From contig JAWLBL010000005.1 in assembly GCA_041687695.1 (NCBI GenBank), positions 256,799 through 320,798 on the forward strand: a stretch of DNA of 64,000 nucleotides. Direction: 5' to 3'. The DNA comes from Myxococcota bacterium. Its GTDB lineage: Bacteria > Myxococcota_A > UBA9042 > PHBI01 > JAWLBL01. Each line of letters starts with the position of its first letter. The stretch's first letter is position 1. Below the pieces are notes generated by a model, which was not told the origin of the DNA, searched no databases, and was given only the letters and a program-made list of their open reading frames with translations. Positions 24,434 to 45,466 of the stretch are shown piece after piece. The position numbers were made by a program, and so were the translations under genes.

Positions 24434-26553
24434 CGCCCGAACTCGCCCTGCCCCGCGGCTTCCGGTTCGCCGGCATCCGCTCCGGCGTCAAGCAGAACAA
24501 GCCGGACACCGCCCTCATCGTCAGCGACGTGCCCTGCGCGGCCGCGGCGAAGCTGACGACCAACCGGGCGCGCGCGTGGGCGGTCGAGCGCACGGCGACG
24601 CTGCTGCCGGCCGACGGCGTGCGGGCGGTCATCGCGGTCAGCGGCAACGCCAACGCGCTGTCGGGCGCCGCCGGGCGCGCCGCGGACGAGGCGATGGCCC
24701 GCGGGGTGGCCGAGGCGCTGGGCGTCGCGCCGAGCGCGGTCATCACCTCGTCGACCGGCGTCATCGGCTCGCCCATGCCGGCGCGGGTGGTGGTCGAGTC
24801 CATCCCGGGGGCGCTCGGGCAGCTCGAGGCCGACCCCTGGGGGGCGGCGCGGGCCATCATGACGACCGACCGGGTGCCCAAGGGCAGCTCGCGCGTGGTC
24901 TTCCTGGGCGAGACGGAGTGCCGGCTGGCCGGCATCGCCAAGGGCGCCGGGATGATCCACCCCAACATGGCGACGATGCTGGCGTACATCGTCACGGACG
25001 TCGGGCTGACGCCGGCGGCGGCGGACCACATCCTGGGGCGGACGGTGGCGCGGACCTTCAACCGCATCAGCGTCGACGGCGACCAGTCGACCAACGACAT
25101 GGTCGTGCTGATGGCCAACGGTCAGGCGGGCGGGGCGCGGCTGGACGTGGGCGACCCGGGGCTCGAGGCGGTCGAGGAGGCGCTGCGGGGCGTGCTGACG
25201 GATCTGTCGCGGGCCATCGCGGCCGACGGCGAGGGGGCGACGCGCCTGCTGACGGTCGAGGTGGTGGGCGCCAGGGACGAGGCCGAGGCGGACGGCGTGG
25301 CGCGGGCCATCTGCCGGTCGAGCCTGGTGAAGTCGGCCATCTTCGGGGCCGACCCCGGGTGGGGCCGCATCATGGCGGCGGCGGGGCAGGCGCTGGCCGA
25401 GCTGGGCTCGGACGCGCACCCCAGCACGTGGAAGCTGCGGCTGCAGGGCGTCGAGGTGTTCCGGCTGGGCGAGCCGGTGCCCTTCGAGAAGCCGGCGCTG
25501 TCGGCGCGCATCGCGGCCGAAGAGGTGGTGGTCCACCTGGATCTCGGGCGCGGGGCCGGGTTCGCGACCTGCTGGGGCTGCGATCTGACGTACGACTACG
25601 TGAAGATCAACGCCGACTACGCGGCGGCGGTGACCGAGACCCAGGCCGGCCAGGTCGGGCTCGACGCGCACCTGGCGACCTTCTCGCCCAAGATCAAGCG
25701 CAGCCTGCTCATCGAGTCCCTGCGCTACATCGAGCGCTTCCGAGGGCGGCGGCTGGTGGTCAAGGTCGGCGGGGATCTGCTCGAGGACCCCGAGACCACC
25801 GACCGCATCGCCGAAGACCTCATCCTGCTGAGGTCGGTCGGCATGCACCCCATCGTCCTGCACGGCGGCTCGCGCGAGATCTCGCGCGCCCTGGCGGCGG
25901 CGGGGCGCGAGAGCCAGTTCGTCGACGGCCACCGCGTCACCACCGCCGAGGACGCGGCCACCGTCGAGAGCGTCCTGCTGGGCAAGGTCAACCGCAAGCT
26001 GGTCGGGCGCTTGAACGCGCTGGGCGGCCGCGCCGTGGGCCTGTCGGGCCGCGACGGCAACTTCCTGCGCGCCCAGCCGCTCGACGCCGCCGACCCGCAG
26101 CGCTTCGGCCACCTGGGCCAGGTCTCCGAGGTCGACGGCCGCCTCATCACCAGCCTGCTCGAGCAGGGCTTCATCCCGGTCATCGCCCCGGTGGGCGTCG
26201 GCCCCAACGACGCGGCCTACAACCTGGACGCCGAGGACGCCGCCGCCGCGCTGGCCGTCTCCTTCGGCGTCTTCAAGCTGGTCTACCTCATCGCCAACGC
26301 GGGCGTGCAGAGCGAGGGCGAGCGCGTCAGCCGCGTCACCCCGCGCCAGGCCCAGCGCCTGATGCGCGAGGGGGCGGTCAAGGGCAAGCTGGTCCACATC
26401 CTCGAGGCGTCGCTGAACGCCGTCCAGGGCGGCGTCCCCCACGTCCACCTGGTCGACGGCCGGGTCGCCCACAACCTGGTCAGCGAGCTCTTCACCGACG
26501 CCGGCGTCGGCACCCTGGTCGAGCGCGGCGACGCCCCCCGCTCGGGCCGCTGA
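24430..26553 (+). CDS. argJ: Ornithine acetyltransferase ArgJ fused to an acetylglutamate-kinase (ArgB-like) domain
   Basis: TTG overlapping the argC stop. ArgJ motifs STGVIG, KGAGMIHPNMATML, DGEGAT, GCDLTYDYVKINADY; then an AAK fold with VVKVGG, LHGG, GLSGRDG, IPVIAP, ELFTDAGVGT. Confidence 0.93.
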   Translation: MTPELALPRGFRFAGIRSGVKQNKPDTALIVSDVPCAAAAKLTTNRARAWAVERTATLLPADGVRAVIAVSGNANALSGAAGRAADEAMARGVAEALGVAPSAVITSSTGVIGSPMPARVVVESIPGALGQLEADPWGAARAIMTTDRVPKGSSRVVFLGETECRLAGIAKGAGMIHPNMATMLAYIVTDVGLTPAAADHILGRTVARTFNRISVDGDQSTNDMVVLMANGQAGGARLDVGDPGLEAVEEALRGVLTDLSRAIAADGEGATRLLTVEVVGARDEAEADGVARAICRSSLVKSAIFGADPGWGRIMAAAGQALAELGSDAHPSTWKLRLQGVEVFRLGEPVPFEKPALSARIAAEEVVVHLDLGRGAGFATCWGCDLTYDYVKINADYAAAVTETQAGQVGLDAHLATFSPKIKRSLLIESLRYIERFRGRRLVVKVGGDLLEDPETTDRIAEDLILLRSVGMHPIVLHGGSREISRALAAAGRESQFVDGHRVTTAEDAATVESVLLGKVNRKLVGRLNALGGRAVGLSGRDGNFLRAQPLDAADPQRFGHLGQVSEVDGRLITSLLEQGFIPVIAPVGVGPNDAAYNLDAEDAAAALAVSFGVFKLVYLIANAGVQSEGERVSRVTPRQAQRLMREGAVKGKLVHILEASLNAVQGGVPHVHLVDGRVAHNLVSELFTDAGVGTLVERGDAPRSGR

Positions 26554-26830: not shown

Positions 26831-27061
26831 TCACGGCTTCCACTCGGACGACCAGTCGATGTGAACGAAGTCGTCCGGATCGCCGACCATGAAGTCGGGG
26901 CGCGTGACCAGGTTGTCCAACTTGGAGCGCGGCCGGTCGGGCACGATGCGCAGGATCTGTCCGTGACGTTCGATCTCGACCGGAACCCCCGTCTCCAGGA
27001 TCTGGTCCAGGATTCGGAAGATGTTGGCCCGGAGCTCGCTGGGTTTGAGCGGTGTGGTCAT
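26831..27061 (-). CDS. Phd/YefM-family type II antitoxin (76 aa), orphan
   Basis: MTTPLKPSELRANIFRILDQILETGVPVEIERHGQILRIVP fits the Phd N-terminal pattern; acidic C-terminal tail; lower GC than flanks. Confidence 0.85.
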   Translation of the reverse strand: MTTPLKPSELRANIFRILDQILETGVPVEIERHGQILRIVPDRPRSKLDNLVTRPDFMVGDPDDFVHIDWSSEWKP

Positions 27062-27179
27062 CGGAGCCTCGCCCGCATGTACGTCCCCCCACCGTAGCGA
27101 CGTACGCCGCGGACGACCAGCGCCGATGATGACCGAACCATGACGGACGGACGGCGCCGAGCTGAGGCATGATGGTGGC

Positions 27180-30951: not shown

Positions 30952-32574
30952 GTGGACAGGCTACTCCAGGAGCGACTCGCCCGGCTCGTGCTCGACAAGC
31001 TGCTCGACAGCGGAGAGCTCCGCAGCGTGGCGAGCCAGCGCGCCCTCGCCCTGCGGATGTTCTATCTGCCGCCGAGCATCCGCCTGGACGTCCCCCCCGA
31101 CGACGACTACCTGCCCCTGCTCGACCCCAACAAGCAGGGCAAGGCCATCGCCGGCCTGCGCGACGCCATCCTGCGCATCGTGCAGCACGAGGAGGGCGAT
31201 CACTGGGTGGTCGTCGACCCCGATCTGCAGCTCGACGTCCACCTCCGCGAGCACTCGCGCGTCCCGCGCATCCGCCCCATCTACGAGCCCGACGTCGAGG
31301 ACGACCGCCCGCAGGGTAGCCGCCTGGGCGAGCCGCGGCTGCGCCTGTCGTGGGGCACCCGCAGCGCGGTGCTGCGCGAGCGCCACGGCCTGCTCAAGGT
31401 GGACCTGGGCCCGCGCCGTCCTGGCCTGGTCCTCATCGAGGGCGGCGCCTCCGACGAGGAGGTCGCCTGGCTGTACGCCACCGGCAAGATCCAGGTCATC
31501 GGCGACGACACCAAGCGCGCCCGCCGCTACCCGGCCCGCACGCGCATCCCCGTCACCCACGACATGACCTTCATCGTGCGCGCGCCCTTCGGCGCCATCT
31601 GGCAGCGCAAGGTCCGCATGCAGCTCGAGGTGCTGGGCCTGACCCGCCTCGGCCGCGCCACCATCGCCTTCACCAACCCCACCGGGCAGACGGTCTCGTG
31701 GGACCGCAACCACCAGCCCCACATGCAGCTGGGCGGCGACTTCGTCCTGCACGCCCGCGAGCGCGATCTGGTCGAGATCGAGAACGTCGAGGAGTCGCCC
31801 GCCTCGCTCATCTGGTTCGACGGCAAGCCCCTGACCATCCCGGGCGGCTCGCGGGTGGCCGTCCAGGGCAGCCACCTCAAGGCCCTGGTCACCACCGGCG
31901 GCGGCGCCTGGGCGGCCACGCTCCCCAGCGCCGGCTCGGCCCCGCCCCCGCGCGTCATCCTGCTCGACGGCGAGATGAGCGCCGAGCGCCACGAGGTCCA
32001 GCGCCGCCGCAGCGAGCCGTCCCTGTTCGGCTTCGTCAGCGAGGCGGCCACCATCTTCCAGGACGCCCTCATCCTGGCCCACGTCCAGGGCGACCGCGCC
32101 CCCATCATCGTCAAGAACCCGGCGCACGCCGGCCCCCTGGCCGAGGTCGCCCTCGACGACTGCGCCGGCGCCAAGGTGCGCCTGCTCCGCGACTCGCACG
32201 GCAAGCCCATCGAGGACGCCCCCTGGCGCCACGTCCAGGACGTCCTCGAGCTCTATCCGTCCTCGGCCCGCCTCGAGCTGGTCGGCGCCCCCCAGGTCAC
32301 CTTCGAAGTGCCGCGGCACATCGGCCGGCTGACCATGGACCCCTCCGACCAGTTCACCGTCGACGGCTGGCGCATCCGCATCACCGCCGACGGCCTCAGC
32401 CTCACGGGCGCCGGCAACGGCCCGGTCGACATCGACGGCGCCGCCTACACCGGCCCGAGCCGCCTCGTCTACCAGGACGGCTACCGCATCCGCGCCGGCG
32501 ACGGCGTCTTCCGCATCCTGCGCGGCCACACGCCCTCCTCGCTGAAGGCCTCGGCCAACAGCCTCCCCGGGTGA
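30952..32574 (+). CDS. Hypothetical protein: FhaA-like N-terminal domain (DUF3662-like) plus beta-rich FHA-like domains
   Basis: GAGG RBS and GTG start; N-terminal MFYLPPSIRLDVPPDD resembles the FhaA N-domain; C-terminal GPVDIDG...LVYQDGYRIRAGDGVFRIL resembles an FHA end. Confidence 0.55.
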   Translation: MDRLLQERLARLVLDKLLDSGELRSVASQRALALRMFYLPPSIRLDVPPDDDYLPLLDPNKQGKAIAGLRDAILRIVQHEEGDHWVVVDPDLQLDVHLREHSRVPRIRPIYEPDVEDDRPQGSRLGEPRLRLSWGTRSAVLRERHGLLKVDLGPRRPGLVLIEGGASDEEVAWLYATGKIQVIGDDTKRARRYPARTRIPVTHDMTFIVRAPFGAIWQRKVRMQLEVLGLTRLGRATIAFTNPTGQTVSWDRNHQPHMQLGGDFVLHARERDLVEIENVEESPASLIWFDGKPLTIPGGSRVAVQGSHLKALVTTGGGAWAATLPSAGSAPPPRVILLDGEMSAERHEVQRRRSEPSLFGFVSEAATIFQDALILAHVQGDRAPIIVKNPAHAGPLAEVALDDCAGAKVRLLRDSHGKPIEDAPWRHVQDVLELYPSSARLELVGAPQVTFEVPRHIGRLTMDPSDQFTVDGWRIRITADGLSLTGAGNGPVDIDGAAYTGPSRLVYQDGYRIRAGDGVFRILRGHTPSSLKASANSLPG

Positions 32575-32592
32575 CATCGGAGCTCCCCCTCG

Positions 32593-35500
32593 ATGCTCGA
32601 GAACGTCCCCACCCCCACCGGCCTCACGGCCCACCTGCTGTTCATGGCGATCTACATCGCCACGGCGGCGGCGGGCCTGACCGGCGCGCTGCTCTCGCTG
32701 GTGCGGCGCGAGACCGCGGGCAACGCGGTCCGGGTCTGCGCCATCCTGACCGCCGTCGGCGCCTTCGCGGCCGTCCTGGTCGGCGCCACGGTGGTGCCCC
32801 GCGTCCCCGCCAGCGACTTCGGCTGGGACGCCCAGCTCGTCACGGTCGGCGCCGCCCTGGCCCTGGCCATCAGCAACGTCGTCCTGGCCATCACGGTCGC
32901 CGAGCCCCGCACCGCCGCCCTGGCGACCCTCGCCGGCGCCCTCACCGGCAGCGGCCTGCTGGTCCACCTGCTCCTGTACTCCGCCGCCCCCAGCCTGTCG
33001 GCCGCCATGAACTGGGAGCTCAAGCGCCTGAGCGTCTACGCGGGCTTCGCCGGCCTCGAGGCCCTGCTCTTCGCCCTGCTCGGCGCCACCGTCAGCCTGC
33101 GTCCGCTGGTCGTCTCGCGGACCCTGCACGCGGTCGCCTTCGTCGCGGGCGGGGTCGCCGTCGTCCTGGCGATGAGCGTGGCCGGCGCCTCGACCCTGTC
33201 GCAGCTGGCGGTCGTCGCCTTCATCTTCGTCCCGGCCTTCTTCTGGTTCCTGTGGCTCATGCTGCGCGCCCGCCCGCCGGTGGTCCCGCGCGCCGTGCCC
33301 GGCGCCGACCGCCGCACGCTCGACCGCCTGGCCCACCGCATCCTGTCGGGCCGCCTGGCCATGCGCGCCCGCCTCGCCCGCTTCGCCGGCTCGCTCCGTC
33401 GCCTGCCCGAGCGCCGCTCGACCCTCCTGCTCGCCAGCCTGATGCCCCTGGGCCTCGCCGTCATGGCGCTCTTCTTCGGCTCGGGCGACACCGCCCGCGA
33501 GGCCGCCCGCGTCAACATCGGCGGCGTCGCCTTCACCCCGGCCCTGCTCGTCCCCTTCGCCTTCGCGCCCGCCCTGGGCCTCATCCTCGGCAGCCCCAAC
33601 CTGCGCGCCCGCGGCCTGTGGGGCCTGGGGCTGACCTTCATGCTCTTGGGCCTGCTCGCCGCGCAGAAGGAGATCGGCTACAGCGGCGTGGTCGTCGCGG
33701 TCGCCGCCGCCGCCTTCCTGGCCGCCCGCGGCACCCTCCTGCACCTGGTCATCGGCGGCGCCTTCGGCCTGCTGGCCGTCGCCATCGCCTTCGAGCTGCA
33801 GCCCGTCCTGCCGTGGATCCCGTTCACCGTCCGCGAGCGCATCCTCCTGTGGCTCGGCGCGGCCAGCTTCGTCCGCCGCGGCGGCCACCTGCTCATGGCC
33901 GACCGCGTCACCTACGACGTCGGCGGCTTCTGGGGCATCGGCGTCGACACCGAGGCGCACCTCGATCTGCACAACATGGTCAACAGCCTCGACACCGACT
34001 TCCCGCTGGCGGTGGTCGGCCTGTTCGGCGGCATGCCGTGGCTGGTGTCGTTCATCGTCCTGTTCGTCGCGCTGGCCCTGCTCCTGTTCGACATCGCGCG
34101 CCGCGACAGCCGCCGCAAGAGCTTCTCGACCACGCGCTGGCGCCTGCCGACCCTCATCGGCCTCGCCACCGTCCCCATCGCCTCCACCGCCATCAACCTG
34201 TCGGGCGGCACGACCCAGCTCACGCCCTTCACCGGCGTCCCCGCGGCCTTCCTCAGCTACTCCAGCTTCTTCCTCGGCGGCACCCTGGTCGTCGTCATGC
34301 TCTTCTTCGTCGCGGGCAACGACGGCGCCGTGGTGCGCCTGCTCCGCCGCGGCGCCGAGATCGCGCGGCCCAAGCCCAAGCTGGACCCCGCCCTGCTCGC
34401 TCAGGTGCAGCGCACCAAGGCCCCCGAGCCCTGGTGGGAGAACCTGTCGTGGGCGGGCCTGCGCCTGTTCGGCCGCCGCCAGCTCGAGCGCGTCCGCACC
34501 GCCTCGGTCGACGCCGGCGCCTTCCTGCTGATGGGGGGCCTCGCCGCGGCCTCCTACTTCTGGATCGGCGCCATCTACGACCGCTACGCCGACCGGCCCG
34601 CGGTCCACGCCCACCCCGCCCTGACCAGCCACGTCCGGGTGCGCCCGCTGGTCCCGGGCACCTGGGAGGTGGTCGAGGACACCATCCCGGGCTGGCGCGG
34701 CATCCTGTCCGAGCGGCGTCAGTACCGCCTGGACAACCTGGAGATGCACTTCAAGGGGGGCACGCTCGAGGTGACGGGCGCCTGCTTCCCGTGGCTGCAG
34801 AGCTCGACGCGCGGCGTCTCCCTGGGCTTCGACGGGCTGATGAAGACGCACCTGGCCGGCTTCGACGGCGCCTCGCGCAGCGTCGCCTCGCGGCTGGGCG
34901 CGCGCATCGAGCAGGGCAACGACCTGGTGCTGCCGCTGGCGCCCGTCTGGCTGCGCCACGCGACCGTCACGCGCGTGTCGCCCGGGTGGTTCCGCGTCGA
35001 GTCGGCGACCCCCGGCGCCCGCTACGTCGTCCTCAACGCCCGGGGCAAGCCGGTCAGCGACCCTATGGACGGCCCGATGATCCTGCCCGCCGGGACCGGC
35101 TTCGCGCTGGCCGACGACCGGCGGCTGCGCTTCCGCATCGACGACGTCGAGGGCGACGGCCCCGCCTCGGGCGAGACCTGCCTGCGCAGCTTCGACAAGC
35201 CGATGTTCACCTGGCCGCTCGACCCGTGGCGCCACACGCTGGTCGGCGGCCCGCGCCTGCTCCGCCGGGCGCCCATCGACAACAGCATCGACTTCGAGTT
35301 CGCCGAGGACTTGAAGCGCGCCGCCGAGCACCACCTGGTCGGCGTCCGGGCCGACGGGACGCTGTGGGTGGCGCCGTGGGACCGCGCCACGCGCGAGGCC
35401 TGGGACCCCATCACCCAGCGGGTCTTCGCGCGCGCCTTCCGCGTCAAGCGCTTCAAGACCGACGACGGCGGCGTCCGCGAGGAGCTGCACTGGATCCGCC

Positions 35501-37215
35501 GCTTCTACTTCGACGGCGGCTCCAAGGTGCGCGCCGACGCCGAGCTCGACGCCTTCGCCTCGAGCTGGACCGGCCACCTCGCCGGCCTCGCCGACCCGTT
35601 CCGCTTCAGCCTGCCGCTGCCGACCACCGCGGCGGGCGAGCTCATCCGCGAGGCGGGGACGGTGATGGACGCGAAGAACCGGCCGCTCGCCTACTACGTG
35701 CCCGAGGAGCAGCGCTTCGAGGTGACGGTGCCGCAGACGGGCACCATCTTAGGGTGGGGCTTCACCGAGCGCGGCATCTTCGGCGGCACGCTGCGCGTCT
35801 TCCGGCGCCTGCTGATGGGGCGGCTGGTCCGGCCGGTCGGCATCGAGGCCGAGCTGACCGAGCGCATCCTCGACCGCGAGGCGACCTTCATCGGCGCCGA
35901 CGTGATGCTGACCCTGGACGCCGAGCTGCAGGCCGGCCTGCAGAAGATCGTCGACGAGGAGTGCGCCATCCTGCAGCGGGGCGGCCGCGGCGACTACAAG
36001 GCCCGCGGGCGCGCGCTCATCCTGGGGCCACACAACGAGATCGTGGCGATGGCCCAGTGCCCGGGCGTCGACATCCGGACCCTCGAGCAGGCCGAGGAGC
36101 TGGTCCGGATGCAGAAGGAGCAGCCCTACGAGGCGCCCGCGCTCGACGTCCTGCACCGCACCGTCACCGTGGGCTCGACCGCCAAGGTCGGCATGGTCGT
36201 CGCCGCGGCGCGCGACCCCAAGAAGTACTTCAAGCCCTACGACAAAAAGGACATCTGCATCCGGGCCGACGACGACCCGGGCAACAGCTCCCGCGGGTGC
36301 TTCCGCGAGCCGGGCCTGCTCACGAGCGTCAAGGGCGAGAAGATCGCGCCCGTGAAGAACTTCGCCGGCGCCGGTTACGGCGGCGTCACGACCATCCGCC
36401 AGCTCCTCGTCAAGTCGATCAACACGGCCTCGGCCTACCTCGCCGGCCGCCTGGGCCTCGCGGAGTTCCAGGACTTCTACGACCTCGTCGAGATGACCCG
36501 GCCCTACGACCTGGTCCCGGACGTCATCGGAAAAAACCCCAAAATTGCCATCGAGCTCGACCGTTGGCACGGTGATCCACTGACGGCCTGGCGCGCGCGC
36601 CTCGGCGAGCTGCCGCCCGGCCCCGACTATTGGCGCATGAGCTACGACGTCCGCCTCGCCCTCAGCGGCTTTTCGGACTTCAGCATGCTCCACGTCGGCG
36701 TGGCCACCGGCATCATCGCCCGCGACGGCATCCACTACCGTCCGTACATGGTCCGCGGCATCCGCGACCTGATGGACGGCCAGGTGCTGAAGGTCGACGT
36801 CCCCAGCTCGTTCCGCGTCATCGCGTCGCCCATCGCCGGCTACCTCAAGAGCGCGATGGTCGACACCGTCGACCACGGCACGGCCGGCGGCATGCGCGGC
36901 ATGCTCCCGCCCGAGGTCTGGAAGGAGACCGGCGGGAAGACGGGCACGGGCGAGACGGTTCGCCTCATCAGAGGGGGCACCTCGTCGAGCGGCAACGTCA
37001 AGTCGACCCAAGACCACAAGTTCTTTACCGGATTCTGGCCCGCGTCCTCAGCCACGCCCTACGTCGTCGTCACCGGCTTCGAGTACGCGAGCCACATCGA
37101 CACCCGCGTCGCGGTCCGCTGCGCCGCGCGCGCCATCGACATGCTCGCGAAGGTCGTGAGCGGACCGACCACCACCACGCAAAGCACCCACTCAGCCTCG
37201 GAAGCCACGCCATGA
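32593..37215 (+). CDS. SEDS (RodA/FtsW) glycosyltransferase - beta-rich linker - class B PBP transpeptidase fusion, 1540 aa
   Basis: Multi-TM N-half with QKEIG, LDTDFPLAVVGLFGG, PFTGVPAAFLSY; C-half DVMLTLDAELQ, SxxK (GSTAK, 36175), SxN (SIN, 36415), KTGT (36937), HKFFTGFWP. Confidence 0.88.
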   Translation: MLENVPTPTGLTAHLLFMAIYIATAAAGLTGALLSLVRRETAGNAVRVCAILTAVGAFAAVLVGATVVPRVPASDFGWDAQLVTVGAALALAISNVVLAITVAEPRTAALATLAGALTGSGLLVHLLLYSAAPSLSAAMNWELKRLSVYAGFAGLEALLFALLGATVSLRPLVVSRTLHAVAFVAGGVAVVLAMSVAGASTLSQLAVVAFIFVPAFFWFLWLMLRARPPVVPRAVPGADRRTLDRLAHRILSGRLAMRARLARFAGSLRRLPERRSTLLLASLMPLGLAVMALFFGSGDTAREAARVNIGGVAFTPALLVPFAFAPALGLILGSPNLRARGLWGLGLTFMLLGLLAAQKEIGYSGVVVAVAAAAFLAARGTLLHLVIGGAFGLLAVAIAFELQPVLPWIPFTVRERILLWLGAASFVRRGGHLLMADRVTYDVGGFWGIGVDTEAHLDLHNMVNSLDTDFPLAVVGLFGGMPWLVSFIVLFVALALLLFDIARRDSRRKSFSTTRWRLPTLIGLATVPIASTAINLSGGTTQLTPFTGVPAAFLSYSSFFLGGTLVVVMLFFVAGNDGAVVRLLRRGAEIARPKPKLDPALLAQVQRTKAPEPWWENLSWAGLRLFGRRQLERVRTASVDAGAFLLMGGLAAASYFWIGAIYDRYADRPAVHAHPALTSHVRVRPLVPGTWEVVEDTIPGWRGILSERRQYRLDNLEMHFKGGTLEVTGACFPWLQSSTRGVSLGFDGLMKTHLAGFDGASRSVASRLGARIEQGNDLVLPLAPVWLRHATVTRVSPGWFRVESATPGARYVVLNARGKPVSDPMDGPMILPAGTGFALADDRRLRFRIDDVEGDGPASGETCLRSFDKPMFTWPLDPWRHTLVGGPRLLRRAPIDNSIDFEFAEDLKRAAEHHLVGVRADGTLWVAPWDRATREAWDPITQRVFARAFRVKRFKTDDGGVREELHWIRRFYFDGGSKVRADAELDAFASSWTGHLAGLADPFRFSLPLPTTAAGELIREAGTVMDAKNRPLAYYVPEEQRFEVTVPQTGTILGWGFTERGIFGGTLRVFRRLLMGRLVRPVGIEAELTERILDREATFIGADVMLTLDAELQAGLQKIVDEECAILQRGGRGDYKARGRALILGPHNEIVAMAQCPGVDIRTLEQAEELVRMQKEQPYEAPALDVLHRTVTVGSTAKVGMVVAAARDPKKYFKPYDKKDICIRADDDPGNSSRGCFREPGLLTSVKGEKIAPVKNFAGAGYGGVTTIRQLLVKSINTASAYLAGRLGLAEFQDFYDLVEMTRPYDLVPDVIGKNPKIAIELDRWHGDPLTAWRARLGELPPGPDYWRMSYDVRLALSGFSDFSMLHVGVATGIIARDGIHYRPYMVRGIRDLMDGQVLKVDVPSSFRVIASPIAGYLKSAMVDTVDHGTAGGMRGMLPPEVWKETGGKTGTGETVRLIRGGTSSSGNVKSTQDHKFFTGFWPASSATPYVVVTGFEYASHIDTRVAVRCAARAIDMLAKVVSGPTTTTQSTHSASEATP

Positions 37216-38588
37216 ACCCCTCTGCCCCTCGCGTCCCTCGCGGCCTCCTCGCCGCGATCCTCGGCGTCCTCACGCTCGCGCTGGCCGTCCCCGCCCAGGC
37301 GCGTCCGCCGCGCGAGCGCCGGCCCGCCCAGCCCACCGAAGCCGAGCGGGTGCTCGAAGGCGGCCCCGCGGCCCAGCAGGGCGCCCAGGCCGCCGGGGCC
37401 CCAGCGGCCCGACAGTGGCACGCCTCGTGCTCGAGCCCCTACCGCCGCCCCATGTCGATGGTGCTCGGCTTCGACGAGTTCCGCGACTACCGCCCGGCGC
37501 AGCTCGCCGAGCCCGAGGCGGTGCGGCAGCTCCTCGGCACCGCCTGCGCCGGCGACCGCGTGGTGCTCGCCGCCGTCGGCATGGACGTGCGGCTGCTGAC
37601 CGAGCCGACCACGCTCAAACAGCCGGCCGACATCGACGCGCTGGTCCAGGCCGTGGCGAGCCGCCGCGAGCCGACCCTGTACACGCGCATCAACGACAAC
37701 CTGACCAAGCTGGCCAGCGAGGAGTGGTCGCGCGCCGAGAACAAGGACAAGCAGGATCTGCTGCGGGTGCTCATCTTCTTCACGCGCCACGTCGAGAGCC
37801 GCAAGCCCTCGAAGTCCTACGTGAACGACTTCTCGTGGGCGTCCCCGCCCTTCTGGCTCGAGGGCATGGCCATGGTGGGCGTCATGCGCCCGCTGGTGGC
37901 CGACAAGAAGATCGAGGCCTGGGATCTCTCGGTGGTGACCACGCCCGGCTTCGTCGACCGCAAGCAGCTGTCGACGGGGCTCAAGCCGGATCTGACGGCG
38001 TTCATCGACGGCGCCCGTATGAAGGAGCGGCCCAAGGAGGTCGCCCGGATGGAGGTCAAGCAGACGGCGCAGGGCCCGGTCATCATCGGCGCGCCCAAGC
38101 TGCCCGAGCTGTGGCCGGTGCCCGACGGCGCCATCCTGTGGGACGACGCCTGGACGCCCTGGGCCATCGCCGCGGGCCTCGGCCTCGCGCTGGTGCTGGT
38201 GCTCATCTGGGCCCTGGCGCGCTCGGCCCCGCCGCGCAACCTCGGCGTCGCCAGCTCCGACGCCAAGGAGCTGACCCTCATCATCCACGACCGCCTGCAC
38301 GGCACCGTCGTCGGCCAGGAGAAGGCCCGCCTCGAGGCCGCCCTGCGCGTCGGCCCGTCCGTGTCGAGCGACGTCATCATCCCCGGCCCGTACGCCCTCG
38401 AGATCATCCCGGGCTCCAACGGCTCGGCGCCGCGCCTGCGCTCGACCAACACCCTGCCGGTCGAGGTGCAGCGCGCCTCCGGCGGGCGCCTGCTGCACGC
38501 GACCGACGCCATCCCGGTCCCCATCCGGTCGGGCGACCGCGTCCACCTCGGCGGCGGCCACGAGCTCGAGGTCCGCTACACGACCTGA
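37212..38588 (+). CDS. Membrane protein: signal peptide, vWA-like alpha/beta ectodomain, TM, cytoplasmic FHA-like domain
   Basis: ATGA overlap; signal peptide ending AQA; GDRVVLAAVG and LRVLIFFT (vWA-like strands, no DxSxS); TM WAIAAGLGLALVLVLIW; C-terminal LRVGPSVSSDVII...IRSGDRVHLGGGHELEV. Confidence 0.6.
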   Translation: MNPSAPRVPRGLLAAILGVLTLALAVPAQARPPRERRPAQPTEAERVLEGGPAAQQGAQAAGAPAARQWHASCSSPYRRPMSMVLGFDEFRDYRPAQLAEPEAVRQLLGTACAGDRVVLAAVGMDVRLLTEPTTLKQPADIDALVQAVASRREPTLYTRINDNLTKLASEEWSRAENKDKQDLLRVLIFFTRHVESRKPSKSYVNDFSWASPPFWLEGMAMVGVMRPLVADKKIEAWDLSVVTTPGFVDRKQLSTGLKPDLTAFIDGARMKERPKEVARMEVKQTAQGPVIIGAPKLPELWPVPDGAILWDDAWTPWAIAAGLGLALVLVLIWALARSAPPRNLGVASSDAKELTLIIHDRLHGTVVGQEKARLEAALRVGPSVSSDVIIPGPYALEIIPGSNGSAPRLRSTNTLPVEVQRASGGRLLHATDAIPVPIRSGDRVHLGGGHELEVRYTT

Positions 38589-38647
38589 CGGCGGCGATCA
38601 GCCCGCGCCCCTCACCTTTGTCCCCACCCGCGCGCATCGAGAGAGCC

Positions 38648-39772
38648 ATGCGACAACCCTTCATCATCGTCGGCGCCGGAACCGATGTGTCCACCCGGGT
38701 CATCCTCCCGGCCTGCCAGCGCATCCGCGAGATGCACGGCAGCTGGCCCAACCACGTCTACGCCCTCATCGCGGACGGCGACGAGCAGACGCGCACGCGC
38801 TACACGCAGGCCAAGCTCCCGGCCGACCGCGCCGCCTTCGTGCCGCTGTCGCTGGTGCAGGTCCGCGAGGCCCTGGCCTGGCGGCGCGACGAGTTCCGCG
38901 ACGCGTGGCGCGACGACTGGCAGCAGCTGCTGGTCCAGGGCCCCGACAACGGCGCCTGCATGGTGCCGGCCATCGGACGCATGATGATGAAGGCGGCGCG
39001 CCCCGCCATCATCCAGCACCTGCGCGCCTTCGAGCGGCGCCTCGACGCCCAGGGCGGCAAGGCGCCCGAGATCTACGTGGTCTGGTCCCCGGTCAGCGGC
39101 ACCAGCCGCGGCAGCGTCGTCGACCTGCCGCGGTATCTGCGGGCCATCTTCCCCGAGTCGCCCATCCACGCGGTCGTCGTGCACCCGGTGGGCGTCGAGG
39201 AGCTGGACCCCGCGGTGGCGCGCATCTTCCAGGCGAACTTCATCGAGGCGCTGCGGCTCATCGACCACTACTCGAACACCGTCAGCTACGAGACCTGGGT
39301 CGACGACCAGGCCGGCTGGCAGCGCTTCGAGGGGCGCCTGGTCGACACGGTCTTCTCGTTCGACGAGCAGTACGGCAACACGCGCTTTCGCCACCTGGCG
39401 GAGACCCAGCGCACGCTGCCCGGGCGGCTCGAGGCGTTGACCTCGCGGGTGGCCGACTTCCTGGCGGGCGTCGCCGGCGGCGACCCGCTGTACGAGCGCA
39501 TGCGCGCGCGCTTCGCGGACGCCGAGATGCACCGGGCCGACCGGCGGCTGGCCGGCCATCGGACCTACCTCTTCGGCGTGCACGAGGCCCGGGCGAGCCT
39601 GGACATGAAGGCCTTCAAGCAGGCGCTCATCGAGCGCGTCATGGAGCGCATCGGCGGCCGCCTCGCGGAGGCGAAGCGGCCCGACGCGACCGACGCGCAC
39701 GCTCAGAGCGTGACCCTCTTTGGCGACACCCTCGGCCGCGCGGAGCTGGCCGGGGACATGACACAGGAATAG
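38648..39772 (+). CDS. Divergent tubulin/FtsZ-like (Tubulin_2-type) protein
   Basis: FIIVGAG (T1 loop), NGACMVPAIGR, IYVVWSPVSGTSRGSVVDL (degenerate GGGTGSG), ANFIEALRLIDHY. Confidence 0.75.
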   Translation: MRQPFIIVGAGTDVSTRVILPACQRIREMHGSWPNHVYALIADGDEQTRTRYTQAKLPADRAAFVPLSLVQVREALAWRRDEFRDAWRDDWQQLLVQGPDNGACMVPAIGRMMMKAARPAIIQHLRAFERRLDAQGGKAPEIYVVWSPVSGTSRGSVVDLPRYLRAIFPESPIHAVVVHPVGVEELDPAVARIFQANFIEALRLIDHYSNTVSYETWVDDQAGWQRFEGRLVDTVFSFDEQYGNTRFRHLAETQRTLPGRLEALTSRVADFLAGVAGGDPLYERMRARFADAEMHRADRRLAGHRTYLFGVHEARASLDMKAFKQALIERVMERIGGRLAEAKRPDATDAHAQSVTLFGDTLGRAELAGDMTQE

Positions 39773-39775
39773 GCG

Positions 39776-41503
39776 ATGGCTGAGCATACGCTTGGTGTGG
39801 GCCTGAAGTTCCGGGACGGCGAGGAGGCGCGCAGGTGGCTCCTCGACCACCTGGAGCGGCTCGAGGAGAGCGTCGCGGACGCGGCCGACATCCACCAGAC
39901 GTCGGCCACGCTGACCGGCGACGCGCTGACGCAGCTCGAGTCCGATCCGCTGGCGTTCCGCAAGAGCGCGGTCATCCACTTCCGCGATCTGCTGAGCGAG
40001 GTGACCGACCGGGCCGCCTCGCGCGCCGAGCGCGAAGGGCTGAACGTCAAGGCGCTCGAGCGGCTCGTGCTGTCGACCCTGGGCACGCGCCCGTCGCACA
40101 CGCGCGAGATCCTCGAGGGGCTGGCCGCCGGCTTCCGCGAGCGCATCGACCGCCTGTCGGTCGAGGGCAACGCGGCGCACGAGGGCGGCCAGGGCGAGCT
40201 GGACGACGCGCTGGGCGGCCTCGACCGGGCGCTCGAGCAGGCGGTGCGCCGCTGGGAGAGCGCGCCGCTGGGCATCTGGAACCGCTACCGGCGGCGCCGG
40301 AAGTTGAAGCGCCAGGGCCTCGACCACGTCGCGGACCTGCCCGAGCTGGCGCTGGGCCTGGCGAGCGCGGCGCGCGAGCAGCGGCCCTCGTTCGAGCAGG
40401 CCTGGGGCCACGTGGTGCGGGCCGGCATCCACCTGGGGCTCGCGCGCAGCTACGCGGCGACCCTGGACTGGCTGGTCACCGTGCTGCACGGCGTCGACGA
40501 TCTGGCGCGGCAGGCCGGCGAGCTGGCCCGCGAGGCCGCGCAGCGCCGCCGGCGCCTCAAGGGCGACTGGACGGGCGCGCGCGTGCCCGACCGGCACAAC
40601 CTGCTCAGCCTCGAGCTGCTCGACGAGGTCATCGACCAGCTCGAGCTGAACGCGGCCGCCTTCCTGGACCGCAGCGAGGTCAAGGCCGACCAGCTGGGCG
40701 CCGCGGGGCGGCAGGTCCTCGAGTCCGATCTCCGCCGCTGGATCGAGGCGCGCCTCGGCGCCCTGCCCGACGCGGGGCTGCGCGACGTGCTCGCCGGGTT
40801 CCGACCCGACGCCGACGTCTCGGGGCCGCTGGTCGAGCTGTTGGCGGCCGGGCAGCCGCTGATGCGGTTCAACGACGATCTGCACCGGCTGTGGCCCGAG
40901 GGGCACCCCGCCCAGTACTACGTCATCGCCGGCGCGACCGACGACAGCCTTCACGACGCCCTGGCCGACGCCTGCGTGGCCGTCGGGCTGCCCTCGCCGC
41001 TGTCCGAGGTCGACGCGGCCGAGGCCGAGGCGACCGGCCACCACCTCGAGCTGCGGGTCCTGCAGCTGGTCGGCGGCCTGGCGTGGCTGAGCGAGGCCGA
41101 GCGCCTGCTGCCGATGATGGTCACCCACGCGACCGTCATGAGCGAGGCCGACGCCCAGCTCGAGACCCGCGAGGGGCTGCGCGCGGCCCTGCGCGACACC
41201 CTCGAGTCCGAGGCCATCGGCGACGTGCTCCCCGACAAGCTGCGGCGCTCGCTGCGCGAGCTCGACGTCCTGCGCACGCAGGCGCTCGAGGCGCCGCGCG
41301 GCTCCGTGCTGCCCGCGCCGTCGGCGTCGGGAGCCGGGGGAAACGGATCGCGTGGGTCGAAGGAGCGGCCGTCGGAGGACTCCCCCGACGAACCCTCGAC
41401 CCACGAGATGGCGAGCGCGCCGGGCCGCTCGGCCGAGCGCCTGACGGCGACGGCGAAGGGCGCTGGCGAGGGCCCGATCCCCTCCGCCGACATCCCCAAC
41501 TGA
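39776..41503 (+). CDS. Helical/coiled-coil protein, in frame with the tubulin-like gene
   Basis: L/E/R/A-rich heptad-like sequence with a disordered C-tail; separated from the upstream ORF only by TAG GCG. Confidence 0.75.
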   Translation: MAEHTLGVGLKFRDGEEARRWLLDHLERLEESVADAADIHQTSATLTGDALTQLESDPLAFRKSAVIHFRDLLSEVTDRAASRAEREGLNVKALERLVLSTLGTRPSHTREILEGLAAGFRERIDRLSVEGNAAHEGGQGELDDALGGLDRALEQAVRRWESAPLGIWNRYRRRRKLKRQGLDHVADLPELALGLASAAREQRPSFEQAWGHVVRAGIHLGLARSYAATLDWLVTVLHGVDDLARQAGELAREAAQRRRRLKGDWTGARVPDRHNLLSLELLDEVIDQLELNAAAFLDRSEVKADQLGAAGRQVLESDLRRWIEARLGALPDAGLRDVLAGFRPDADVSGPLVELLAAGQPLMRFNDDLHRLWPEGHPAQYYVIAGATDDSLHDALADACVAVGLPSPLSEVDAAEAEATGHHLELRVLQLVGGLAWLSEAERLLPMMVTHATVMSEADAQLETREGLRAALRDTLESEAIGDVLPDKLRRSLRELDVLRTQALEAPRGSVLPAPSASGAGGNGSRGSKERPSEDSPDEPSTHEMASAPGRSAERLTATAKGAGEGPIPSADIPN

Positions 41504-41661: not shown

Positions 41662-43824
41662 GTGGCCGCCGCGCGCGGGCCCGGCTACTATGGGGCGGCC
41701 GCATCACCGCGGCCCAACGCCCAGGCTCGACGCGTTTTGCTTCCTCATCGCCCGGCCAGCAGCGAGCTCGAGCGTGTCCTCGTGGCCATCGCCTCCGGGA
41801 CCGCGACGGCGACCAGCGGCGAGGCGTTCTTCCAAGCGCTGGTCGAGCACGCCGCCCGCGCCTTCGGGACGCGCTGGTCGTGCGTCGGCGTGCTGGACGG
41901 CGACACGGTCCGGACCCGGGCCTTCTGGGATCACGGCAGGGCCGACGCGCCGCCCTACCCGCTGCCGGGCAGCCCGTGCGAGCAAGCGGCGCGCCAAGGC
42001 TGCCTCCGCATCGACGCCGAGGTCGTCGGGGCCTTCCCCGAGGACCTGGCCCTCGCCGAGATGGGGGTCGAGGCCTACCTGGGCTGCGCCATCACCGACG
42101 GCGCGGGACGCGTGCGCGGCGTCTTGAGCGTGCTGCACGACGCCGCGATCGCCTGGCCGGACGAATCCGAGCTGATCCTGACCATCTTCGCCGCCCGGGC
42201 CAGCGCCGAGCTGCAACGCCTCGAGGCCGAGCAGAGCCTGCACGAGCGCGAGCGGGAGGCGCGGCGCCTCGCCCACGAGCGGACGAGCGCGCTCATCGAG
42301 GTCCAGCGCAGCGAGGCGCGCTTCCGCTCGGTCATCGAGAACGCGTCCGACCCGGTCATCATCATGACCGTCGACGGCGTCTGCCTGTACGCCAGCCCCG
42401 CGACCGAGCGGGCGGTGGGCCTGCCGCCGGCGCAGCTGGTCGGGGCGAACCTGTTCGGGCTGCTGCACCCCGAGGACGTCGACCCGGCGCGATCGGTGGT
42501 GGCGGACGTGCTCGCCGACGCCGATCAGCCCTTCACGATGCAGCTGCGCGTCCGGCACCGCGACGGCTCGTGGCGCGACTTCGTCTGCACCGCGCACAAC
42601 CGCCTGGGCGATCCGGCGATCGGGGGCGTGGTCGTGAACGCGCGCGACGTGACGACCGAGATCGCGCTCGAGCAGCAGCTGCGCCAGGCCCAGAAGATGG
42701 AGGGGCTCGGCCGGCTCGCCGGCGGCGTCGCCCACGACTTCAACAACCTGGTCACCGTCATCCAGGGCTACTGCGAGATGATCACCGAGGAGCTGGCGAT
42801 CGGGCACCGTCACCACGAGCCGCTGCACCAGATCCAGCGCGCCGCCGAGCGGGCCGCGTCGCTGACCGGTCAGCTCCTGGCCTTCAGCCGCAAGCAGGTC
42901 TTGCGCCCGGTCGTGCTCGATCCCATCGAGGTGGTCGCCGGCATGGAGCCGATGCTGCGGCGCCTGGTCGGCGAGGACATCCGGATCGCGGTCGACTTCG
43001 CGATGGACGTCCCCGCGCTGCGCGCCGACCGGGCCGGCCTCGAGCAGGTCCTGATGAACCTGGTCGTCAACGCGCGCGACGCCATGCCGCGCGGCGGGCG
43101 CCTGGACATCGCGGTCGATCGCGCCACCCTCGAGGCCGACGCCGTCGGCGATCTGCCGGGTGGCGAGTTCGTCGTGCTGACGGTGCGCGACACGGGCCAT
43201 GGCATGAGCCCCGAGGTGCAGGCCCACATCTTCGAGCCCTTCTTCACGACGCGCGAGCCCGGCAAGGGCACGGGGCTGGGGCTGTCGACCGTCTACGGCA
43301 TCGTCCGCCAGTCCGGGGGCGCCATCGCGTGCCAGTCGGCGCCCGGCCAGGGGGCCTGTTTCACGGTGTACCTGCCCGGCAGCGCAGGATCGCCGGCGCG
43401 GCTCGAGGGGGTGACCCGCGTCGCGCCGCCCGGACGCGGGCGGGTCCTGGTGGTCGAGGACGACGCCTCCGTGCGGTCGCTGGTCCGACGCATCCTCCAC
43501 GGCCGCGGCTACGCCGTCGTCGAGGCGTCCGACGGCCCGGGCGCCCTCGAGCTGCTCTCCCTCGACGCCCGCGCGGTGGACGTGGTGCTGACCGACGTCG
43601 TGATGCCGGAGATGAGCGGCCCGGCCCTGGCGCAGCGGATCCGCGTCCTGCGCCCCGAGCTGCCCATCCTGTTCATGTCCGGCTACCCGGGCGAGGAGGT
43701 CATGCGCAGGGGCCTGGCCCACCGCGACGTGCCCGTCCTGCAGAAGCCCTTCACGCCGCACGAGCTCGCCGAGGCGGTGCGCCGCCTGCTCGATCGGGAG
43801 CCCGCGCTCGCGCGCGGGGCATGA
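41662..43824 (+). CDS. Hybrid histidine kinase GAF-PAS-HisKA-HATPase-REC (start uncertain)
   Basis: GAF (EAYLG, IFAARA), PAS (LLHPED, HRDGSWR), [34 protein letters not shown] and QKPF. Confidence 0.95.
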
Positions 43825-43888
43825 TTCCGAAAATCCGAGCACTTGCGGGGCTTTCCTCTGCGTCCGGCCCCGGCTAAGATGCCGGCCC

Positions 43889-45466
43889 ATGAAGGTGTGT
43901 CCCACGTGCGGCTCCGAATACGCCGAGTACTTCCGCTTCTGTGGCGTGGACGGGACCGCTCTGACCGAGGCCGAGCAACAGGACCCGCTGGTCGGCCGCG
44001 TCATCGATCGCCGCTACCGGCTCGTCTCGCTCATCGGGCGCGGCGCGTTCGGCGCCGTCTACAAGTCGCGCCACGAGCGGGTGCCCCGGGATCTGGCGGT
44101 CAAGATCCTGTTCGCGAACCGCTCGACCAACCCCGACTTCGTCGCCCGGTTCGAGCGTGAGGTGCGCGCCGAGGCCGTCCTCAGCCACCCGCACATCGTC
44201 GAGGTCATCGACTACGGCTTCGCCAGCGAGGTCGGCTACTACATCGTCATGGAGCACCTGGCCGGCGAGCCGCTCGACGAGCGCCTGTCGCGCGAGGGGG
44301 CCCTGAAGATCCTCGACGTCTACACGATCATGACGCAGGCGGGCAGCGCGCTCGCCCTCGCCCACTCCAAGGGCATCGTCCACCGCGACTTCAAGGCCGA
44401 GAACGTCTTCCTGGTCACCGCCAACGACCAGCCCGTCGGCTACACGGTGCGCCTGGTCGACTTCGGCGTCGTCAAGATCACGCGGCCCGACGGCGATCTG
44501 GTCGGCGAGGGCGACGCGCTGCTCGAGACGCAGGCCGGCGCCTCGGTCGGCACGCCCTACACGATGAGCCCCGAGCAGATCCGCGCCGCGGACGTCGACG
44601 GGCGCGCCGACATCTACAGCCTGGGCGTGCTGCTGTACGAGATGCTGACCGGGAACGTGCCGTTCATCGGCGAGACCCTGGACGAGCTGCTCGAGCACCA
44701 CCTCCGCTCGCGGCCCACGGCGCCCTCCGAGATCGACGGCTGCGACTGGATCCCGCCCGAGCTCGACGCCCTGGTCCTGTCGATGCTGGCCAAGGATCGC
44801 GCCGAGCGCCCCCAGACCGTCGAGGAGGTCCTCGACCGCCTCGACCAGATCCGCCCCGCCGTCGAGGACGCGTGGGCCGCGCGCCACCTGGTCGCGCGCC
44901 CCCCCGCGGCCGCCCGCCCGCTGCGGGTCGCGGAGGCGACGCCGGTCATGCTGAACGCGCCCATCGAGCCGGCCAGCGTGGGCCGCCCCAAGGGTGACTT
45001 CGTGGCCACCGCCGAGCAGGTCTCCGCGCCGCCGCTGGGCGCCGGCGGCCCGCCGCCCGTCCCCGCGGCCGCCGCCGCCCCGGACGCGGCGACCCGGCCA
45101 CGCCCCCGCGTCCTCATCGTCGACGACGAGGCCCCCATCCGCCGCCTGGTCCGCCGCATCATCAACCAACGCGGCTACGAGGCCTTCCTGGCCGAGACCG
45201 GCGAGCAGGCGCTCGACTGGCTGAGCGCCAACGCCGCCCCGGACGCGATCATCCTCGATCTGCTGCTGCCGGGGGTCGACGGGCTGACGCTGCTCAAGCG
45301 CATGCGCGACGACGGCTTCGCCGGCCCGGTCATCGTCTGCTCGGGCCTGGCCTCGCAGGCCCTGCGCGACGAGGCCATGCGCTTTGGCGCGGTGCGCTTT
45401 CTGGCCAAGGTCGACGACTTCCACCGCATCTCGGACGTGCTCGACGAGATGCGCGTCGGGTGCTGA
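43889..45466 (+). CDS. Hanks-type Ser/Thr kinase with N-terminal zinc ribbon and C-terminal receiver domain
   Basis: CPTC...FCGVDG; GRGAFG, AVK, HRDFKAEN, DFG, GTPYTMSPE; REC VLIVDDE, LDLLLPGVDG, FLAK. Confidence 0.95.
   Translation: MKVCPTCGSEYAEYFRFCGVDGTALTEAEQQDPLVGRVIDRRYRLVSLIGRGAFGAVYKSRHERVPRDLAVKILFANRSTNPDFVARFEREVRAEAVLSHPHIVEVIDYGFASEVGYYIVMEHLAGEPLDERLSREGALKILDVYTIMTQAGSALALAHSKGIVHRDFKAENVFLVTANDQPVGYTVRLVDFGVVKITRPDGDLVGEGDALLETQAGASVGTPYTMSPEQIRAADVDGRADIYSLGVLLYEMLTGNVPFIGETLDELLEHHLRSRPTAPSEIDGCDWIPPELDALVLSMLAKDRAERPQTVEEVLDRLDQIRPAVEDAWAARHLVARPPAAARPLRVAEATPVMLNAPIEPASVGRPKGDFVATAEQVSAPPLGAGGPPPVPAAAAAPDAATRPRPRVLIVDDEAPIRRLVRRIINQRGYEAFLAETGEQALDWLSANAAPDAIILDLLLPGVDGLTLLKRMRDDGFAGPVIVCSGLASQALRDEAMRFGAVRFLAKVDDFHRISDVLDEMRVGC

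Follow-up and report, generated by a model that had tools for sequence, protein, structure and literature searches.

Known pairs of a SEDS glycosyltransferase and a class B penicillin-binding protein (bPBP) are organised by FtsZ or MreB (PMC8765783), and 117 natural SEDS-bPBP fusions are known (PMC12516126). In the actinobacterial cluster fhaA-fhaB-pstP-rodA-pbpA-pknA-pknB, such a pair is encoded beside FhaA, a protein with a role in polar wall growth (bioRxiv 2024.08.13.607006). Operons that join the tubulin FtsZl1 to a vWA protein come with kinases, GTPases and OmpA, and were predicted in 2010 by Makarova and Koonin to form a membrane-remodelling machine (PMC2875224); no experimental test of them was found in the literature searched. 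Here we describe five genes at positions 30952-41503 of a 64,000-nucleotide stretch of a Myxococcota genome (contig JAWLBL010000005.1; the whole stretch is referred to as the window). The locus merges two known modules, FtsZl1-vWA and FhaA-RodA-PbpA; it is genuine and conserved, and no description of the combination was found in the literature searched.

The five open reading frames (ORF1 to ORF5) lie on the + strand with intergenic gaps of 18, -4, 59 and 3 bp; recomputed coordinates and gaps agree with those of the preliminary description of this DNA. GC at the three codon positions is ~0.73/0.49/0.97 across the five ORFs, the pattern of genuine genes. The FtsZl1/vWA operons share with the locus an FtsZl1 domain (with, probably, its helical half), an exported membrane vWA neighbour and an existence beside canonical FtsZ (PMC2875224). 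Here, however, the tubulin is probably split in two, its T1 and T4 loops read GxGT and SGTSRG, the metal ion-dependent adhesion site (MIDAS) of the vWA is degenerate, the unit contains no kinase, and the partner is a SEDS-bPBP synthase; a term search of six supplements of PMC2875224 returned no FtsW, RodA, penicillin or transpeptidase. The actinobacterial cluster is alike in its FhaA N-domain and FHA protein beside a SEDS-bPBP pair (bioRxiv 2024.08.13.607006), and differs from the locus described here, which has three predicted FHA folds without phosphothreonine motifs, a fused synthase with a predicted periplasmic FHA-like insert, and tubulin and vWA genes in place of a phosphatase or kinase. 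Of the likeness to this cluster drawn earlier, the FhaA-like gene beside a RodA/PbpA-type pair stands, whereas the kinase and phosphatase part does not: tblastn of 20 related loci found no PP2C, and its one kinase match was a fragment of 39 aa on the edge of a locus.

The SEDS-bPBP fusions termed 'bifunctional bPBPs' likewise carry glycosyltransferase and transpeptidase in one chain beside canonical FtsW/FtsI (PMC12516126). They are shorter (~950 aa, compared with ~1540 aa for ORF2), the window ORF2 has diverged far enough for PF01098 to miss it, and the neighbours that the available text of that paper names are mreB, rlmH, a kinase and a phosphatase, with neither tubulin nor vWA among them. 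The GAP1-N2 systems of Kaur et al. 2020 (PMC7159879) resemble the locus in a tubulin with helical extension, a membrane vWA and a proposed membrane-near role, but none of the five genes is a double GTPase or GAP1 gene; the terms 'transpeptidase' and 'FtsW' are absent from the main text of PMC7159879, and the accessible portion of bioRxiv 2026.10.19.760177 does not mention transpeptidases. The five-gene combination was not found in full-text literature, a search in which subscription journals are mostly uncovered and Table S11 of PMC12516126 might list a member.

The divisome (FtsZ-FtsA-FtsWI) and the Rod complex (MreB-MreCD-RodA-PBP2) share a general plan in which a SEDS-bPBP synthase is combined with a membrane adaptor and a cytoskeletal nucleotide-binding fold. 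No part of either has its ortholog among the five genes. The named relatives come from Myxococcota or 'Deltaproteobacteria' assemblies, and the host is accordingly taken to be a myxobacterium. Both machines are encoded elsewhere in its 8.0 Mb, 99% complete genome: ftsZ, ftsA, ftsW and ftsI on contig C13, and mreB, mreC, mreD, pbp2 and rodA on contig C1 (ftsA, mreC and mreD were identified by eye from position and sequence). The preliminary description had asked whether canonical ftsW/ftsI, rodA/pbp2 and ftsZ exist elsewhere, and a housekeeping SEDS/bPBP role for ORF2 was rejected given these sets on other contigs. Among relatives, two standalone full-length SEDS genes were present in four of five checked and MreB in four of four.

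Judged by their distribution among genomes, the five genes are passed on together. Searches with the window ORF2 and with the window ORF4, each protein used singly, matched one and the same set of 8 among 107 genomes of the class. With profiles, ORF1 and ORF5 match these eight as well, and ORF3 matches them plus two weak partial vWA proteins; these three profiles were built from carriers, and what is telling is that the remaining genomes do not match. The operon is in pieces in five of the eight class carriers (G051-G054, G056), yet all five genes are present, with ORF1-2 and ORF4-5 persisting as separate pairs. G050, G044, G262 and G326 preserve the order 1-2-3-4-5, at identities down to 27-47%, as do two metagenome contigs, of which one carries an insertion of 2 kb and the other has ORF4 and ORF5 fused; another two contigs that scored identically to G262 and G326 were left out of the counts. 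The genes flanking the operon vary between loci. Across 401 genomes of the phylum, ORF2 is found in at least 8 and the ORF4 subfamily in 9, of which eight match ORF2 and the ninth is G191. With three carriers beyond the class, the genes recur together in 11 genomes from about five lineages, contrary to the preliminary description's refuting condition that they do not co-occur elsewhere. All five genes are under purifying selection, with ratios of non-synonymous to synonymous change (dN/dS) of 0.04-0.40, measured between relatives rather than on the window genes and likely overestimated, since high GC at third codon positions lowers dS.

One carrier beyond the class, G191, is far diverged and re-ordered. 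Its locus (L116:925-9747, contig G191:C196) runs 3-5-1-2-4, encoding a vWA-transmembrane protein, a helical protein, an FHA-like protein, a SEDS-bPBP fusion and a tubulin with the SGTS loop. The fusion, whose gene overlaps that of the tubulin, aligns with ORF2 at 99.4% with 23% identity over 999 columns and keeps the motifs, its SEDS half reading GTDM and QRETG; the tubulin aligns with the ORF4 family at 99.2%. The vWA, encoded close to the contig end, reads a MIDAS-like DNSLS. The ORF1-, ORF3- and ORF5-like genes of G191 show no significant similarity to the window families and are paired with them by domain type alone, and a search of 110 further genomes from the G191 order turned up no relative of protein P0040. 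G191 has one standalone SEDS match and other long SEDS proteins. L118:5894-9681 and L119 (G191:C16, C59) hold one more SEDS-PBP fusion (GSIFK), which lies behind a PP2C-like gene, as well as a long SEDS-like ORF.

Table 1. Features of the five-gene locus, in window coordinates.
Feature	Position	Strand	Description
ORF1 (P0001)	30952-32574	+	540 aa; soluble FhaA-like protein
ORF2 (P0002)	32593-37215	+	1540 aa; SEDS glycosyltransferase, FHA-like/beta region and class B transpeptidase, fused
ORF2 SEDS core	33424-34317	+	Residues ~278-575; QKEIG motif, RodA-PbpA-fusion type
ORF2 SEDS catalytic Asp D469 (DTDF)	33997-33999	+	Aligned with the HTDF-type motif of reference SEDS proteins; counterpart of E. 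coli FtsW D297 by motif
ORF2 FHA-like domain	34909-35142	+	Residues 773-850; profile-profile match (hhalign)
ORF2 transpeptidase domain	35890-37152	+	S1195-x-x-K1198 (Ser codon 36175-36177), S1275-x-N1277, K1449-T-G
ORF3 (P0003)	37212-38588	+	458 aa; predicted signal peptide, vWA, transmembrane helix, FHA-like tail
ORF4 (P0004)	38648-39772	+	374 aa; FtsZl1/Tubulin_2 nucleotide-binding domain (putative GTP binding); T4 loop PxSGTSRG at 39089-39112
ORF5 (P0005)	39776-41503	+	575 aa; helical protein

As read from profiles and motifs, ORF2 unites the two halves of a SEDS-bPBP synthase; the catalytic Asp is kept, as is each of the three transpeptidase motifs. Its matches to TIGR02210 (RodA, E 2.9e-6) and PF00905 (E 2e-8) fall within the single ORF, in keeping with the earlier label of a SEDS-PBP fusion. 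S1195xxK, S1275xN, K1449TG and D469 are each present in 14 of 14 rows of the ORF2 family, and the catalytic residues are thus kept among rows of 33-54% identity. Matches of the transpeptidase to PDB profiles are class B PBPs, 4mnr the best. ORF2 has 14 hydrophobic segments, the last at 643-661. Its SEDS core aligns with the RodA-PbpA-type fusion P0030 at an hhalign probability of 97%, with 29% identity over 266 columns, and its motifs QKEIG, W-L, DTDFP and RGGHL are of the RodA-PbpA-fusion type. A 21-row SEDS tree, from which three reference rows were left out, is suggestive of the same affinity: the split from FtsW/RodA (98/99) leaves the ORF2 family, whose branch is very long, with the fusions.

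Between the two catalytic halves, an FHA-like domain matches an FHA profile built from the same genome (hhalign 77-81%, score 32-33, where shuffles reach at most 13). FHA domains bind phosphothreonine through the residues GR, SxxH and NGT; of these the ORF2 domain keeps the His alone. The domain is predicted to be periplasmic because it follows the last transmembrane helix, on the same side as the transpeptidase, and the cysteines C731 and C863, invariant in the family rows, are consistent with that location. In residues 670-886 (window 34600-35250, +), the strand pattern and the C731/C863 pair would fit another FHA-like domain, permuted and wrapped around the first, which when aligned (670-723 with 861-886) scored below shuffles (21 compared with 22.8). 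Modelled as a complex, ORF2 662-1125 and the ORF3 vWA scored 0.00, which counts neither for nor against contact.

ORF4 passes the Tubulin_2 cut-off (PF13809, 32.5 bits against 27), as do 11 of 12 aligned members, and reaches hhalign probabilities of 97-98% (E 5e-11 to 3e-14, ~300 columns) against canonical FtsZl1, represented by 27 proteins of other genomes. These matches place it in the tubulin superfamily, as the preliminary description had proposed; PDB sequence searches with ORF4 and with its profile returned nothing meaningful. The T1 loop reads GxGT in 39 of 40 rows, one row being truncated. In T4, G151-T152-S153 is present in 40 of 40 rows and S150 and R154 in 39 of 40, giving SGTSRG where canonical FtsZl1 rows read GGTGSG, GGTGAG or NGTGxG; the standard GGGTG(S/T)G-type GTP-binding signature is absent. 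With a dN/dS of 0.04-0.06 between relatives, ORF4 is the most constrained of the five genes, so the loop change looks selected rather than decayed, and GTP binding through the altered loops is putative. Tubulins with the SGTS loop group in a single clade, which takes in G191 and excludes canonical FtsZl1 (SH-aLRT 99, with a long-branch warning). Canonical FtsZl1 genes of the phylum (L084:11367-13694, L086:6434-8782, L087:4404-8603) often have a vWA gene in front of them and, behind them, a second gene that lacks a T4 loop and whose opening T1-like loop is damaged.

ORF5 has no family match. FtsZl1 proteins are laid out as a GTPase, a coiled-coil and a helical domain (PMC2875224), and ORF5 probably represents the coiled-coil/C-terminal half of such a protein, separated from the rest: P0007, P0008 and L049 are natural proteins in which it is fused to an ORF4 homolog, and its residues 351-458 align weakly with the FtsZl1 C-terminal domain in three of five reference rows (hhalign 8-44%, best E 2e-4), with one of the other two rows matching another stretch at 29% and one matching nothing. 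The 'helical partner' of the preliminary description is helical, but rather than an unrelated partner it is probably the other half of the tubulin.

The remaining two proteins carry FHA-like folds. ORF3 has, by hydropathy, a signal peptide (AQA at 28-30) and a transmembrane helix at 318-336, followed by an FHA-like tail at 350-458, and is predicted to cross the inner membrane with the vWA outside and the tail in the cytoplasm. ESM Atlas matches (vWA 0.96, vWA and FHA together 0.91) and hhalign (vWA 88%, FHA 73%, both clearly beating shuffles) bear out the earlier label of a vWA/FHA membrane protein, and a PDB search with the ORF3 profile gave no meaningful match. Of the FHA motif the tail keeps only Gly and Asn, with Arg and SxxH absent. 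In G262 the ORF3 homolog (L039:1030-2285) lies in two overlapping frames, one vWA and one transmembrane-FHA, either a real split or an assembly error.

ORF1 has no transmembrane segment by hydropathy and no Pfam or NCBIfam match. An AF2 model from a 7-row alignment (pLDDT 77.7, pTM 0.54; a single-sequence fold reached only pLDDT 32) supports its labelling as FhaA-like: residues 1-126 align to the N-domain of Rv0020c, the M. tuberculosis FhaA (2lc0; VIA-align Z 6.3, root-mean-square deviation 3.7, 102 aligned), and three FHA folds are modelled at 126-230, 232-328 and 364-527 (Z 8.9, 8.3 and 8.6). The single Z values are middling, and the weight of this model-based assignment rests on agreement across the match list, in which nearly all of the top 50 structures have the FHA or the related MH2 fold. 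Foldseek with the same model returned diffuse beta-propeller matches alone, at a template-modelling score of ~0.1. By sequence, no ORF1 domain matches the FHA profile (hhalign), and phosphothreonine motifs are therefore not recognisable.

With a probability of roughly one half, we read the locus as encoding an accessory machine for building peptidoglycan, one that would work apart from the divisome and the Rod complex and be organised by a tubulin-fold component of its own. Of the similar proposal in the preliminary description, the accessory, conserved module is upheld by the canonical sets elsewhere and by co-occurrence, while its scaffold and synthesis are things that we infer, as are catalysis, nucleotide binding, polymerisation and every protein contact in the system; the roles it suggested in wall repair, sporulation, predation or defence are conjectural. 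In such a machine ORF1, ORF4 and ORF5 are predicted to be cytoplasmic. ORF4 and ORF5 would act as one FtsZl1 unit, binding nucleotide via a remodelled pocket and forming a membrane-near patch or filament, and the ORF3 tail and the ORF1 FHA folds, lacking phosphothreonine pockets or a linked kinase, would serve as phosphorylation-independent couplers. The ORF3 vWA and the periplasmic FHA-like region of ORF2 may recruit or switch on the synthase, which would deposit and cross-link extra wall at the marked site; a pole, an appendage, a spore-like or a contact site are candidate occasions. More tentative, and short of an even chance, is its bolder form as a third cytoskeleton-directed wall machine, in which a split FtsZl1 with a new SGTSR pocket would polymerise at the inner membrane and kinase-free FHA couplers, located on either side of it, would drive a single-chain SEDS-bPBP towards a specialised wall structure.

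Several observations weigh against an accessory wall machine. Sixteen positions yield dominant-negative mutants in E. coli FtsW (PMC8765783). When FtsW numbering is transferred motif by motif, using the FtsW and RodA of this genome rather than the E. coli sequence, seven of the 16 are changed in the ORF2 family (W138, Q147, P196, L198, Y242, R243, G381) and three fall in ambiguous register. Six are kept (G199, R246, D297, G371, Y379, G380), or five in the window protein, which has Ser at the G380 position. With ~7 of 16 essential positions changed, glycan polymerisation by ORF2 is not assured. The T1 loop of ORF4 is unlike that of all 27 canonical FtsZl1 rows and its T4 loop unlike the GTG core, and FtsZl1 proteins are without recognisable T6-H7 filament elements (PMC2875224), so polymerisation by ORF4 is hypothetical. 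The MIDAS of ORF3 is degenerate, D88 being invariant and both serines missing in seven of seven rows, whereas an intact DxSxS is the majority state in FtsZl1/vWA operons (PMC2875224). Finally, the co-occurrence counts are not independent, the carriers amounting to about five lineages.

Some of these points would fit an envelope defence, in which the ORF3 vWA would sense phage, predator or wall damage and signal via its FHA-fold tail, ORF4 and ORF5 would form a non-polymerising nucleotide switch, and ORF2, once turned on, would patch or thicken the wall. The receptor-like topology of ORF3, the altered tubulin loops, the patchy spread over 9 of 401 genomes and the presence of tubulin and vWA genes in proposed conflict systems (PMC7159879) all favour it, and it is the alternative that survives best, though we consider it unlikely. 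PADLOC (2023 library) returned 0 families for six proteins at E 0.1, no relative lies on a viral contig, one weak plasmid match was found, and the GC of the locus equals that of the genome (0.730 for both). Instead of a variable effector slot, the system has five constant, strongly conserved genes that persist after operon scattering. Mobile or phage cargo was rejected on the same viral, plasmid and GC results.

The changed FtsW positions bear more directly on a reading in which the SEDS half no longer polymerises and ORF2 would be a transpeptidase or lipid II-binding anchor, cross-linking or opening wall already present and so fixing a trans-envelope structure organised by FtsZl1-vWA. The second extracellular loop (ECL2) hairpin lacks its Trp, Gln147 has become Thr, and Tyr242/Arg243 and Gly381 are changed in all family rows; the SEDS branch is very long (3.2 changes per column) and the SEDS dN/dS is 0.16-0.26. 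Against this, D469, G548, S555, R416 and G362 are invariant wherever rows cover them, and the far-diverged G191 copy retains its motifs. Several of the changes are, moreover, common to ordinary RodA-PbpA-type fusions, which read QKDLG or QRDFG, P0030 itself being without the Trp and having T-V, and on balance the loss of polymerase activity seems quite improbable. Least credible of all is that ORF1-2 (FhaA-like protein and synthase) and ORF3-5 (vWA and FtsZl1) are unrelated modules travelling together, for although each resembles a known stand-alone module, broken operons leave separate pairs, and 14 other regions of the Tubulin_2 family (present in 99 of 401 phylum genomes) have no SEDS gene within 20 kb, neither module stands alone in any genome searched, even where unlinked, G191 interleaves the genes, and the SGTS tubulins group as a single, if long-branched, clade.

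Around the operon, no sigma-70 promoter match was found at the locus, and six terminator-like matches, every one within ORFs, were left unused. Downstream, window 41662-45466 (+) encodes a GAF-PAS histidine kinase with receiver, followed by a fusion of a Ser/Thr kinase with a receiver domain. This second kinase, 2.4 kb from the operon behind the histidine kinase gene, was rejected as a part of the system, being absent from related loci. A class A PBP (PBP1A-like) is encoded at 47659-50283 (+), 6 kb downstream, and was likewise rejected, since PBP1A was not seen in the listed flanks, though no search was aimed at it. Upstream, a 707-aa ORF at 24430-26553 (+) lies behind an argC-like gene and is, by eye, presumably ArgJ fused to the acetylglutamate kinase ArgB; the end of a short ORF at 26831-27070 (-) we take to resemble a Phd/YefM-type antitoxin.

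The five-gene system is rare, and its carriers include metagenome assemblies. In it, the nucleotide pocket of a tubulin is naturally altered yet strongly constrained, FHA folds are kept without phosphosignalling, one of them predicted to lie outside the cell, and about half of the essential E. coli FtsW cavity residues are changed in a SEDS enzyme. By tying a tubulin to an enzyme with simple assays, such as labelling with penicillin, polymerisation of lipid II and incorporation of fluorescent D-amino acids, the locus makes FtsZl1 function testable. If the reading as a third cytoskeleton-directed wall machine is true, the synthase would be the first enzymatic output for the widespread FtsZl1/vWA operons.

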